Shown here piece by piece: positions 2,498 through 7,306 of a DNA stretch of 30,922 nucleotides. The translations under genes and the position numbers were made by a program. Within the stretch, counting starts at the first letter, position 1, and every line of letters begins with the position of its first letter. The notes under the pieces are model-generated. The model worked only from the letters and a program-made list of their open reading frames with translations, was not told the origin of the DNA and did no database searches. Source of the DNA: Candidatus Thorarchaeota archaeon (GTDB lineage Archaea; Asgardarchaeota; Thorarchaeia; Thorarchaeales; Thorarchaeaceae). The stretch is taken from positions 1 to 30,922 of the forward strand of contig JBHLRS010000036.1 in NCBI GenBank assembly GCA_048882325.1. Reading direction: 5' to 3'.

Positions 2498-3895
2498 GTG
2501 AGAAAATTCAAGCCAATAGGAGTAATGCCTGCACTCGTCACTCCCTTCACTCGCGATGGGGACATCAGTGAGGAAGGTTACAAGCAGGTCATTGACTATA
2601 CAATTGAAAATGGTGCCACGGGAGTAGTTACTCTTGGAACCACCGGAGAATTCTCCTATCTACGAACAGAAGAACGCAAGAAGATGCTGAAACTAACTCT
2701 GGAGTATGTTGATGGAAGAGTTCCAATTATAGCTGGAACAGGACAGCATAGCACTCGCGCTACAGTAGACCTCACAAAATATGCTGCAGATCTTGGATGC
2801 GATGCAGCGCTGGTGATATCTCCTTATTATCTCCGACCATCTGACAAAGGATACTATGAACATTATGCGACTGTCTCGAGAAAAGCTGACCTCCCAGTCT
2901 TGATGTACAATATTCCTCAATGCACCCTCGGAGTCCTTAATTCTAATATCGTCGAGGACTTGGCTGAGCTTGACAACATCATTGGTATCAAGGATAGTAG
3001 TGGAAGTGTTCCGTACATTCTCGAACTGATTCAGAAGCTCAAAGGTAAGATGGAAGTCATAATTGGGGCAGACGAGTGTTTCTTGTCAGCAGTTGTAGCA
3101 GGTTCAAAAGCGGCGATAATGGCTTCAGCTAACGTCATTCCTCACCTCTGGCTTGAAATAATGAGGTTGGCTCAAAGTGGAAAGATAGAGGAAGCCGCTG
3201 AGCTTCAACAGACCACTCAGACCTTTGCTCGAATGGTTTTAAAATATGGAGCAGCTCCTCCTGTGAAAGCCGCTCTTAGAATGTTGGGTGTCAAGGCTGG
3301 TCGTTCCAGGATGCCTTTGGATAGCGGAGGAACACTCACCCCTGAGATAAAAGAAGAGATTCGTATTGAACTTGAGAGAATGGGTCTGATTGAGAATATT
3401 GACCACGAAACCGTTCAGAAGGACATTCATATTCTTGAATTTTTGAAGGAGCAAGGTGTAGCTATCCGTGAAACTGCAGAGATTCAATCCAGCTTCGCAG
3501 CTAATGATACGGTATCAGCAGGCATCGTTGTAGGTCGAAAGAATGGTCCTTTGGGTCATGCCTTTGTCCAGTTACTGACAATGCCAAAAAATGGTCATGA
3601 AGCATTGACAGTTATCCTTGAGCCGAACCTACCTGTCAAACCAAGTAGCCTAATGCTCCCTATAAGGAAGATCCAATCAATGCGTCAAGCTTCTCTCTTC
3701 TATGGCCCTATACAATCAGGAGCTGCTAAAGCCATCGCAGCATTCTTGGAGGCTGGAAAGATTCCCAAGAACTCCTTGACCGATGATGTGACAATCCTTG
3801 CACTGGATATTGATTTGAATGCAAGAGACCGCCGTGAGCTCACGACAGCAGCACAACAAGCTGTTGAAAGTGCACTTGCGGGAATATGGGGGTGA
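2498..3895 (+). CDS. DapA/NAL-family class I aldolase fused to C-terminal Fae-like domain (paralog 1)
   Basis: PALVTPF, GTTGEF, PYY, YNIP, GIKDSSG (Schiff-base Lys). The C-terminal ~140 aa carry the Fae-type segments ILEPNLPVKP and RQA..FYGP.QSG.AKA. Start moved to GTG 2498, preceded by a GGTGA SD. Confidence 0.88.
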   Translation: MRKFKPIGVMPALVTPFTRDGDISEEGYKQVIDYTIENGATGVVTLGTTGEFSYLRTEERKKMLKLTLEYVDGRVPIIAGTGQHSTRATVDLTKYAADLGCDAALVISPYYLRPSDKGYYEHYATVSRKADLPVLMYNIPQCTLGVLNSNIVEDLAELDNIIGIKDSSGSVPYILELIQKLKGKMEVIIGADECFLSAVVAGSKAAIMASANVIPHLWLEIMRLAQSGKIEEAAELQQTTQTFARMVLKYGAAPPVKAALRMLGVKAGRSRMPLDSGGTLTPEIKEEIRIELERMGLIENIDHETVQKDIHILEFLKEQGVAIRETAEIQSSFAANDTVSAGIVVGRKNGPLGHAFVQLLTMPKNGHEALTVILEPNLPVKPSSLMLPIRKIQSMRQASLFYGPIQSGAAKAIAAFLEAGKIPKNSLTDDVTILALDIDLNARDRRELTTAAQQAVESALAGIWG

Positions 3896-3900
3896 ACAAA

Positions 3901-5376
3901 ATGCCAAAGAAATATCGCTTCAAAGGTGTGTACCCCGCGCTGGTCACACCTTTCAATGAGAATGGTGTAAATGAAAAACAGTATCGGGGTCTAATTGAAC
4001 ACACCATCAAACTTGGAGCCACTGGAATAGTTCCATGCGGAACGACGGGTGAGTTCACAAGCATGAGGTTTGAAGAGAAGGTTGATGCAATCCGTATTGC
4101 GTGTGAGGTCGCAAAAGGTCGAGTTCCTGTCTTGGCTGGAACTGGAGCTGCATATACTGGTGATGTTGTTAAGTTAACCCGAAGAGCGGCTGAATTGGGT
4201 GCAGCAGGCGCACTTGTGGTGTCACCGTATTTTCTTAAACCATCGGACAAGGAGATCTATGAGCACTTTGAGAAGGTCGCAAACAACAGTGACATACCAA
4301 TCTTTGTCTATAACATTCCTCAAGTAACAGGAGTCCCATTACACTGGACACTCATTGATGGACTCCGAGAGATTGATGGCATCATAGGTCTTAAAGACTC
4401 CAGTGGCGATTTGATCAATCTAACCACCATTCTTGTGAGAAAACCCGAAAACTTTCAGGTAGTTGTGGGTCATGATGAGGTAGCACTCCCAGCCCTCGCT
4501 TCAGGCTGCGATGGGGCAATCCTAGCCAGTGCCAATGTTTTTCCTGACCGTTATCTCAAAATGCAGACAGCTCTTGCTACGGGGGACCTGAAGGAAGCTC
4601 TCATTATTCAGCGAAGTATTCAGAAGATAGTTCGTATCTTTGTTAATCATGGTGGAGGATTAGCTGTCAAGGCTGCTCTAAATATGATGGGCGTTCCTGT
4701 TGGGTCAGCAAGACCACCCCTAGAGATTGGTGATGCATTAGGCTATGATATGTATGACGAGATTCGAACTTGTCTTGAAGACCTTCAGATGATTCCTCGT
4801 GGTATTGTCACTTTCAAGATGGGAGACCGGTCCATTGAGTCAGAGGCTTATCCAAAAGCAGTGGGTATGGTCCCTGATGTCATTGAGGATTTGACACTAC
4901 TTCATGGTGAAGCACTCTTTGGTGGTGGAAGTGACGTTGCCCATGTTGATTTGATTCTAGGGTTGCGTGATGGTCCCATGAGTGTGGCTCTAAAGAATGC
5001 TGGAAAAATCACTGAGAACACTCATCCATCCAATATTATCAAGGATTTGGAGCTAGCAACAGTCTTTGCTCCTACTGTTACAATAACTTCAGAGAAACAC
5101 AAGGCAATGGTTTATGACGTAGCACAGAGAGCAGTTGCTGATGCAGTTCGAAGGACAATCACAGACACAATCATTCCCGAGGAACTTGTACCGGATTTGG
5201 TGATTGCAGCGAATGTTTTCGTTCACCCAAATGCTGTTAATCCAACACGCGTTCACATCAACAACTTCATTGCAGTGCGACACGCCATCCGTAGAGCTTT
5301 AGAAGGCCGTCAGAGTGTGGAGGAGATTGTTGCTAGAAAGGATTCTGCAAGACATCCATTCGCTTACAATCCCTAA
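3901..5376 (+). CDS. DapA/NAL-family class I aldolase fused to C-terminal Fae-like domain (paralog 2)
   Basis: PALVTPF, GTTGEF, YNIP, GLKDSSG. C-terminus has Fae motifs GEALFGGG..VAHVDLILG, AQRAVADAV, VFVHPNA, AIRRALEG and terminal HPF. ATG 3901 is preceded by a GGGGTGA SD that contains the upstream stop codon. Confidence 0.9.
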   Translation: MPKKYRFKGVYPALVTPFNENGVNEKQYRGLIEHTIKLGATGIVPCGTTGEFTSMRFEEKVDAIRIACEVAKGRVPVLAGTGAAYTGDVVKLTRRAAELGAAGALVVSPYFLKPSDKEIYEHFEKVANNSDIPIFVYNIPQVTGVPLHWTLIDGLREIDGIIGLKDSSGDLINLTTILVRKPENFQVVVGHDEVALPALASGCDGAILASANVFPDRYLKMQTALATGDLKEALIIQRSIQKIVRIFVNHGGGLAVKAALNMMGVPVGSARPPLEIGDALGYDMYDEIRTCLEDLQMIPRGIVTFKMGDRSIESEAYPKAVGMVPDVIEDLTLLHGEALFGGGSDVAHVDLILGLRDGPMSVALKNAGKITENTHPSNIIKDLELATVFAPTVTITSEKHKAMVYDVAQRAVADAVRRTITDTIIPEELVPDLVIAANVFVHPNAVNPTRVHINNFIAVRHAIRRALEGRQSVEEIVARKDSARHPFAYNP

Positions 5377-5898: not shown

Positions 5899-5994
5899 TA
5901 ATCAGCTTCACCATGCCCTAGGGTGTCCTACTCTCTTTACGAGGCGAATAGTAGGTTTCAGCCTAAATCCGATGACTACTTCTTGAAAATACGA

Positions 5995-6072
5995 TGTGGC
6001 AAATCTCAGCTTGCTCTTGGCTCGTCATCGCCGAAGCTCAGCCAGGGGTAACCGCCTCACCGAATTGCCACA
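5995..6072 (-). ncRNA. Box C/D 2'-O-methylation guide sRNA
   Basis: Minus strand reads UGUGGCAAUUCG-GUGAGGC(C)-GGUUACCCCUGG-CUGA(D')-GCUUCGGCG-AUGACGA(C')-GCCAAGAGCAAG-CUGA(D)-GAUUUGCCACA. It has an 8-bp terminal stem, two perfect CUGA boxes, two 12-nt guides, a cUUCGg-capped internal K-turn and a terminal K-turn. Confidence 0.85.
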
Positions 6073-6092
6073 AGATGATATCAGATAGCTTT

Positions 6093-6100
6093 CCTATAAG
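6093..6100 (-). promoter_or_regulatory. Putative TATA box for the C/D sRNA
   Basis: CTTATAGG on the minus strand about 23-27 nt upstream of the sRNA 5' end, the expected archaeal TATA spacing. Confidence 0.45.
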
Positions 6101-6178
6101 TTGTACGAATCTGGAAGACGGTAAATCAGGAACCTTCATAGGATGGCATCGATGTGAATTTCTCAGGAGCAATGACAA

Positions 6179-7306
6179 ATGGATAAGTCCCGTATGTTGT
6201 CCCTTCTCAAAGACCTCTTAGCTGCCAACTCGCAGAATCCTCCTGGATATGAAGCTGACGTGGCAAAGGTCCTTCAAGATCATCTGGAATCTTTTGGCAT
6301 TGCATGCACCTCAGTTGGTCCAGCAAAGCGTCCCAATCTGATCTTTTCCAGCCACGACGGTCAGAAAGGTGACATCATTATGCACGGTCATATGGACACA
6401 GTTCCTGTAGGTCCAACAAAGGATTGGACCCATGACCCATTCGCTTCAGAAATTGTTAATGGCCGACTCTACGGAAGAGGCGCTTGCGATATGAAAGGTC
6501 CTATCGCCGCTCTTGTTGAGACCCTAATTCTCTATACTGAGGAGCGACATGCAAAGCCTCTTGTTGTACTCACAACATCAGATGAAGAGAGTGGTTGCTC
6601 TGGGGCTGAAGAGGTTGCTGCCAGCGGACTCCTCAACGGAATCCGTTATGGTGTTTGTGCAGAACCAACAGGTCTACAAGTTCTTGTTGGAGAGAAAGGG
6701 ATGTTCTGGTCTAAGGTCGTTGCAAAAGGAAAGTCTGCTCATGGTTCGCGACCGGAGGAAGGAATCAACGCAATTCAAGATTGTATAGATGCAATCAATA
6801 TTATCAAGGAGGAGGAGTTCTCGTATGAACCTGATGACCTACTTGGTGAGCCCACATTGAACATCGGGATGATTGAAGGTGGTATCAAAATTAATGTGGT
6901 TCCCGACCATTGTGAAGCTCAGCTTGACATGCGTATTGTGATGGGTCAAGATCCTGACTCTCTCTTGAAAGCGATGAATGGCCGACTAGAACACGCAGGA
7001 CTATCTGATAGAGTCAAGGTTGAATATGTGCATGGCCAACCAGCAGTTCTGACACCCACTGATTCTGAGATTGTGAAATTAGCTCAATCTACAGTGGAAC
7101 GAGAAACAGGAACCAGACCTACTTTGGGCACAGCTACATATGGAACAGATTGTTCAGTATTGCAACCCAAAGTTGGTATTCAACATGTAATCTGTGGACC
7201 AGGTTCGATAGAACAAGCTCATCAGCCTGATGAATACATTTCAATTGATGAGTTGCATAAATCTGTGAGTATCTATCTAAAGATTGCACGCTATTTTGGC
7301 GGCTGA
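6179..7306 (+). CDS. M20 family metallo-hydrolase (ArgE/DapE-like deacylase)
   Basis: HGHMDTVP, GRGACDMKG, SDEE, AEPT, HGSRPEEG, GGIKINVVPD, AHQPDE motifs. Confidence 0.93.
   Translation: MDKSRMLSLLKDLLAANSQNPPGYEADVAKVLQDHLESFGIACTSVGPAKRPNLIFSSHDGQKGDIIMHGHMDTVPVGPTKDWTHDPFASEIVNGRLYGRGACDMKGPIAALVETLILYTEERHAKPLVVLTTSDEESGCSGAEEVAASGLLNGIRYGVCAEPTGLQVLVGEKGMFWSKVVAKGKSAHGSRPEEGINAIQDCIDAINIIKEEEFSYEPDDLLGEPTLNIGMIEGGIKINVVPDHCEAQLDMRIVMGQDPDSLLKAMNGRLEHAGLSDRVKVEYVHGQPAVLTPTDSEIVKLAQSTVERETGTRPTLGTATYGTDCSVLQPKVGIQHVICGPGSIEQAHQPDEYISIDELHKSVSIYLKIARYFGG

Follow-up and report, generated by a model that had tools for sequence, protein, structure and literature searches.

The window analysed here is a stretch of 30,922 nucleotides from a Thorarchaeota metagenome-assembled genome (MAG), and between positions 5995 and 6072 of its minus strand lies an unannotated element with the layout of a box C/D guide sRNA. 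The locus raises the questions of whether this element is a gene, which nucleotides its two guides would select for methylation, and whether it is an Asgard counterpart of a eukaryotic snoRNA, as the original prediction proposed on the basis of a target shared with snR38/SNORD1. Our analysis indicates that the region very probably encodes an independently transcribed archaeal box C/D sRNA of ∼75 nt that guides methylation of the large subunit (LSU) rRNA nucleotides equivalent to E. coli G2446 and C2510; we infer its transcription, its assembly into an RNP and the two methylations.

Architecture of the minus-strand RNA

Read from the sequence, the minus strand of 5995-6072 contains a complete archaeal box C/D sRNA, 78 nt long with its full terminal stem. 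In this stem UGUGGCAA (6072-6065) pairs with UUGCCACA (6002-5995) over 8 bp; inside it lie a U-U mismatch and then the pairs U6063-A6004 and C6062-G6005 (UC with GA). Box C (6060-6054) and box D (CUGA, 6009-6006) are closed by this 8+2 bp stem as in a C/D kink-turn. The canonical box C is RUGAUGA, and the variant found here, GUGAGGC, is off consensus in its 3′ half. It had been suggested that pairing compensates for the variant C box: the C7-G pair is indeed present here, although some orthologs lack it.

The interior of the RNA is occupied, in order, by the 12-nt D′ guide GGUUACCCCUGG (6053-6042; predicted target LSU G2446, E. coli numbering), box D′ (CUGA, 6041-6038), the 9-nt D′-C′ spacer GCUUCGGCG (6037-6029), box C′ (AUGACGA, 6028-6022) and the 12-nt D guide GCCAAGAGCAAG (6021-6010; predicted target LSU C2510, E. 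coli numbering). Both internal boxes are thus present, the guides measure exactly 12 nt each, and this spacing is kept in the orthologs. Across orthologs boxes D′ and D each read CUGA or CCGA (box D is UUGA in one tandem paralog) and box C′ reads AUGACGA or AUGAAGA. The spacer folds as a GC-UUCG-GC mini-hairpin holding a cUUCGg loop, a feature singled out in the original prediction; the loop is present here but restricted to part of the genus.

The flanks carry candidate transcription signals on the same strand. A promoter-like region (6091-6104), ACAAC followed by the TATA-like TTATAGGAA, lies ∼25 nt upstream of the 5′ strand of the stem, with the TATA-like CTTATAGG itself at 6100-6093, again about 25 nt from the stem. 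A T-rich tract directly after the stem (5985-5990) is a likely archaeal termination signal, at which the transcript would end. The box coordinates, the two 12-nt guides, the terminal stem and the TATA-like element were all found where they had been predicted.

Distribution and genomic setting

When the four-box layout was searched for with a relaxed regular expression, the 3.6-Mb genome gave only 6 matches, 2 of them with a terminal stem of at least 5 bp. The only other stem-closed match (box C ATGAGGA, D′ TTGA, C′ CTGATGA, D CTGA, 6-bp stem TGACCC/GGGTCA) lies outside the window at G000:C31:24097 on the plus strand and is possibly another C/D sRNA.

BLAST recovered the element from most genomes of the genus. 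A covariance model (R1) was built from an alignment (A1) of 25 sequences, comprising 21 orthologs and 4 paralogs; it scored this RNA at 102 bits over 5991-6076 and detected it, with both guides kept, in 24 of 26 sampled genomes of the Thorarchaeota family (f1) and in the one sister-family genome (1/1). A strict dual-guide pattern had matches in 69 of the 400 Asgard genomes searched, whereas its reversal, used as a control, gave about 12 hits; by family, matches were obtained in 44 of 85 genomes of the Thorarchaeota family, in 1/1 of the sister family and in 17 of the 22 genomes of family f22, whose sample consisted of one genus with genomes of 1.4-5.9 Mb. Conservation across Asgard genomes, which had been proposed as a check, was borne out in that the RNA is kept across genera and in f22. 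Matches of R1 in families f12 and f21 were rejected as orthologs, being different C/D sRNAs whose guides are unrelated.

The ACAAC plus TATA-like motif (ACAACTTATAGGA, ACAACTTTTAGGA or related TTTCATAAGG forms) occurs at the same distance in nearly all orthologs, and T-rich runs follow the stem on its 3′ side, likewise in nearly all. The sRNA gene is antisense between two plus-strand genes, upstream of an M20 peptidase in several genera, and must therefore have its own transcription unit.

The MAG is 93% complete and comprises 89 contigs and 3.6 Mb. It encodes all of the expected partner proteins: the genes for fibrillarin (289 bits) and Nop5 (228 bits) are neighbours on contig C46, and the L7Ae family is represented by two genes. 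There is no LSU or SSU rRNA gene in the MAG's own assembly, and targets were therefore read from the rRNAs of congeneric genomes.

Several other features of the surroundings were recorded. Several congeners carry a second C/D sRNA in tandem ∼128 nt downstream, with its own promoter copy (L017:1165-1250, L019:1658-1743 and L027:1628-1713 on the plus strand; L020:633-718 on the minus strand). The tandem sRNA keeps the G2446 guide, replaced by another guide in one genome, and has a differing D guide, CACGGUGAGCAG, for which no convincing target was found; a near-identical D guide, (A/U)CGGUGAGCAG, is combined with other D′ guides in sRNAs elsewhere in related genomes (L165-L168). No tandem copy was found in the assembled part of the window's genome. 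Just 3′ of the sRNA, positions 5900-5975 of the minus strand form a block conserved across the genus with a nearly invariant GGCTGAAACC and a stretch of GAGAGAGTAGGACACCC; the block overlaps a weak Rfam match to DUF805b at 5925-5965 (14.6 bits, below threshold), and RNAalifold returned no supported structure for it. Elsewhere in the window, the plus strand of 3886-5376 encodes a 496-aa protein in which a DHDPS-family (dihydrodipicolinate synthase-like) domain is fused to a formaldehyde-activating enzyme (Fae) domain.

The D′ guide and LSU G2446

Each of the four 23S rRNAs from the same genus reads ACCCCAGGGGUAACAGAG on the 5′ side of the peptidyl-transferase loop, and in every one of them the D′ guide formed an uninterrupted run of 11 Watson-Crick pairs with CCAGGGGUAAC. 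The sole unpaired position of the 12 is the first guide base, adjoining box C, which faces an A. When D′ guides were shuffled and compared with LSU and SSU rRNA, 3 of 2000 reached an 11-nt run; the guide core GUUACCCCUG is nearly invariant in the orthologs. Counting five from box D′ leads to the second G after the A, the equivalent of E. coli G2446, as numbered from the standard A2451 after alignment with the E. coli sequence shown by Dennis et al.

This is the site that had been proposed for the D′ guide, from an rRNA segment with one mismatch. The accompanying question, whether the 2448-equivalent base is a G, can be answered in the affirmative, as the segment reads CCAGGGGUAACA in the four same-genus 23S rRNAs. 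The alternative 16S target was not upheld, the best SSU match having 8 Watson-Crick pairs, 3 G-U pairs and 1 mismatch, and nothing convincing was found among tRNAs in a survey that is incomplete, aragorn having found only 14. The pairing, read on congeneric rRNAs in place of the organism's own unassembled one, supports the prediction that the D′ guide directs methylation of the G2446 equivalent.

The rRNA genes that were compared showed some peculiarities of their own. Some Asgard 23S genes carry insertions, presumably introns, within or adjoining the peptidyl-transferase segment (L150 in G114, ∼1157-1190; L149 in G083, ∼1159; L004 in G030, ∼4144-4250), and the one in G114 starts right after the C2452 equivalent, exactly where pairing with the D′ guide ends. 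On contig C205 of congener G017 the LSU and SSU genes (L005, L029) are ∼70 kb apart and so unlinked, and the SSU gene of one congener spans 2.3 kb, which suggests an intron.

The D guide, LSU C2510 and covariation with rRNA

The D guide was left unassigned in the original prediction. Its invariant core CCAAGAGC is complementary to the Thorarchaeota-specific GCUCUUGG in helix 90 of 23S rRNA, at a site 64 nt downstream of the D′ target with no length difference relative to E. coli, and C2510 stands opposite the fifth guide base from box D. The duplex is modest in this genome, with 8 Watson-Crick pairs, one terminal G-U pair at each end and two mismatches, at positions 2 and 3; in congeners with assembled rRNA the guide ends in CAGG, which brings the count to 9 Watson-Crick and 2 G-U pairs with a single mismatch. 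By itself a run of 8 nt is not significant for this guide (416 of 2000 shuffles reached the same), and support for the assignment therefore comes from covariation. Genome-wide, exact complements of the D guide amounted to ∼35 ten-base matches, which is chance level; these lie in apparently ordinary coding regions, except for the sRNA gene's own complementary strand.

At rRNA positions 2444, 2448 and 2515 the Thorarchaeota family departs from the other lineages in the comparison, and the guides match. On the D′ side, the Thorarchaeota rRNA has CAGGGGUAAC with guide GUUACCCCUG, and the f22 rRNA has CGGGGAUAAC with guide GUUAUCCCCG. On the D side, GCUCUUGG in Thorarchaeota goes with CCAAGAGC, and families f2 and f22, which have GCUCUUCC, carry GAAGAGC. 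Only the Thorarchaeota family has UUGG in helix 90; UUCC or a similar sequence stands there in the remaining Asgard rRNAs that were examined and in the archaea of Dennis et al. 2015 (PMC4644070). Guide changes matching the rRNA were thus seen at 2444 and 2448 in f22, and at 2515 in f2 and f22.

Individual genomes illustrate the pattern. In the sister family (G019) the rRNA reads UCGGCUCUUCCUU and the guide AAGAAGAGCAGG in the same register, with an exchange of C-G for G-C at 2515. The f22 copies carry the guides GUUAUCCCCG and GAAGAGCCGU, and an f22 rRNA (G128) reads CCGGGGAUAAC and GUCGUCUCUUCC; a further f22 "rRNA" match, in G199, was left out as bacterial-looking and probably a contaminant of the MAG. 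The G2446 guide is also kept in a third family, f5, where it is combined with other second guides. Both guides track the rRNA at 2444, 2448 and 2515, which is the behaviour of true guide-target pairs, and the D guide can be assigned to LSU C2510 as its predicted target.

Alternative explanations

Box motifs are short, and three ORFs of 42-75 codons overlap the element (5994-6221 and 5923-6051 on the plus strand, 6038-6178 on the minus strand), so one could ask whether box-like motifs arose by chance in a spacer, or in part of a small ORF, where there is no RNA gene. The pattern of variation is of another kind. Guide cores and boxes are invariant or nearly so across A1: all 25 sequences of the alignment share the UGA core of box C (the Thorarchaeota copies vary at box positions 5-7, as N-R-C), and box D always keeps its GA. 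The GC/GC closing pairs of the spacer are kept in 25 of 25, whereas the loop between them varies in sequence and in length, with insertions of 1 and 5 nt. The terminal stem shows compensatory changes, as in column pair 14/80, which is A-U in 10 sequences and G-C in 5. Fixed boxes and guides, a varying loop and compensatory stem changes fit an RNA and not overlapping short ORFs. Together with the promoter on the minus strand, the covariation of the guides with rRNA and the count of two stem-closed four-box matches in the whole genome, they already contradict an origin by chance or in an ORF, to which we give hardly any credence. The reading as a box C/D sRNA is supported by the conservation, by the promoter, by covariation in the stem and by the partner proteins that the genome encodes, and we regard 5995-6072 (minus strand) as confirmed to be a real, previously unannotated box C/D sRNA gene.

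A narrower doubt concerns the division of labour within a genuine box C/D sRNA, in which the D′ arm alone would guide methylation and the D arm would serve as a chaperone or address another RNA. The two mismatches at positions 2-3, adjoining box D, in this genome point that way, as does the commonness by chance of an 8-nt run, and the tRNA survey was an incomplete one (aragorn, 14 tRNAs). Moreover, the A-G mismatch at position 3 is conserved: an A opposite G2508, adjoining the predicted target, persists in almost all Thorarchaeota copies, so that methylation by the D arm could be inefficient, or its role that of a chaperone alone. Against this, in three Asgard families the core of the D guide follows the helix-90 sequence of its own lineage. 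Counted from box D, the f22 D guide (G128) is paired at 2, 3 and 5-10 and has one mismatch, at 4, and the same C is the published predicted target of Methanopyrus kandleri sR7 and Ignicoccus hospitalis sR473. Guidance by the D′ arm only is accordingly an improbable reading in our judgement, and an RNA with two methylation guides is the one adopted below.

Proposed function and significance

By the established mechanism of the family, the dual-guide RNA would be bound by L7Ae at the terminal C/D kink-turn and at the internal C′/D′ motif, after which a Nop5 dimer and two copies of fibrillarin would assemble on it. Each 12-nt guide would then pair with nascent 23S rRNA, and fibrillarin would transfer a methyl group from SAM to the 2′-OH of the nucleotide opposite the fifth guide base upstream of D′ or D, the D′ guide selecting the G2446 equivalent and the D guide the C2510 equivalent. 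The two target sites, 64 nt apart, lie on two strands that enter the domain V central loop at the peptidyl-transferase centre. The RNA may for this reason hold the strands together during folding, and a bridging or chaperone role in rRNA folding is plausible.

In the literature library that was searched, no paper combined "Asgard archaea" with box C/D sRNAs, and Asgard guide-RNA repertoires thus appear to be uncatalogued. The gene described here adds a well-supported C/D guide, and leaves the understanding of how such RNAs work unchanged. Its interest is that a mesophilic Asgard lineage would keep guides for two riboses of the peptidyl-transferase centre that are also methylated in eukaryotes, and it offers a testable prediction for work on Asgard ribosomes, namely Gm at the G2446 equivalent and Cm at the C2510 equivalent.

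Relation to known archaeal and eukaryotic guide RNAs

Predicted guides for the same nucleotides have been published for other archaea, in alignment numbering. Methanopyrus kandleri sR7 was predicted to target 23S C2784 with its D guide and 23S G2720 with its D′ guide, I. hospitalis sR414 to target G2720 and C2772, I. hospitalis sR473 to target C2784, and Methanococcus maripaludis sR101 to target G2720 (PMC4644070). The conversions given in the same source (2880 = E. coli 2606, 2830 = 2556; PMC4644070) amount to an offset of 274, from which G2720 is G2446 and C2784 is C2510. Thus sR414 (D guide) and sR101 (D′ guide) share the predicted target of the D′ guide described here, and sR473 that of its D guide. 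The arrangement of sR414 is different, as its G2446 guide is paired with a C2498 guide, a combination also present in one Asgard genome of family f5 (G149). N. equitans sR03 and T. tenax sR140 have similar guides and were not counted, the published table assigning neither to G2720; our own register for T. tenax sR140 falls on G2445.

The closest parallel is M. kandleri sR7, likewise a dual guide, for the same two nucleotides, in the same D′/D order and with the same pairing register; the register that we parsed from the MKAsR7 sequence agrees with the published targets. The dual-guide type itself is therefore already known. The two RNAs differ in several respects. The host of sR7 is a hyperthermophilic methanogen, and both guides of sR7 fit the standard forms of the rRNA, CCGGGGAUAAC and GGCUCUCC. 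The C box of sR7, AUGACGA, departs less from the consensus than the GUGAGGC found here, and its D box is the variant CGGA. Stems and spacers are without evident similarity, the likeness being established for boxes and guides only. The main text of the M. kandleri RNA-seq paper (PMC3695527) does not mention sR7. Archaeal guides and guide pairings have been described as fast-evolving (PMC7994747), which makes the same guide pair in a distant euryarchaeon unusual.

Among eukaryotes, Arabidopsis Gm2805 (snoR38Y), yeast Gm2815 (snR38), human Gm4362 (snR38A/B/C) and Dictyostelium Gm3148 have been equated (PMC8817022). The D′ guide described here shares with snR38, SNORD1A-C and plant snoR38 (RF00213) the target column G2446, the second G of (C)AGGG(A/G)UAAC in LSU domain V, and the guide of the Rfam snoR38 consensus stands in the same register to its D′ box. 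The human snR38A/B/C of that compilation are RNAs that we take to be SNORD1. At gathering thresholds Rfam gave no match in the whole window. The permissive matches over the RNA itself were all to C/D families (snoR38, 20.7 bits; snoPyro_CD, 15.8 bits; sR19); the snoR38 score compares with the 45 bits of RF00213 and had an E value of 1 in a 500-nt search, and the identities aligned to RF00213 are boxes and guide only. Of the proposal of an Asgard counterpart to a eukaryotic snoRNA, the function at the same site stands; the Rfam score is below threshold, and since sR7, sR414 and sR101 target the same G, the G2446 guide is not Asgard-specific. The link with snR38 is one of common target position, and not of demonstrated descent.

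The second site can be followed in the same way. Human Cm4426 (4456 in the new numbering), guided by SNORD49A/B, lies 64 nt after Gm4362, and Dictyostelium Cm3212 lies 64 nt after Gm3148, the spacing that separates G2446 from C2510. Judged by this constant spacing and numbering offset, the human Cm4426/SNORD49 site would be C2510. It is conceivable, although we consider it unlikely, that the dual guide for G2446 and C2510 is a single vertically inherited family that predates the split between Methanopyrus-type Euryarchaeota and Asgard archaea, with arms ancestral to snR38/SNORD1 and SNORD49. Its members, in a genome survey of Asgard archaea only, would be M. kandleri sR7, the Thorarchaeota RNA and that of the second Asgard family, and if such descent were true this would be one of few guide RNAs traceable across the transition from archaeon to eukaryote. 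Eukaryotes use a separate snoRNA for each of the two sites, usually intronic and single-guide, whereas in Thorarchaeota one dual-guide RNA would serve both.
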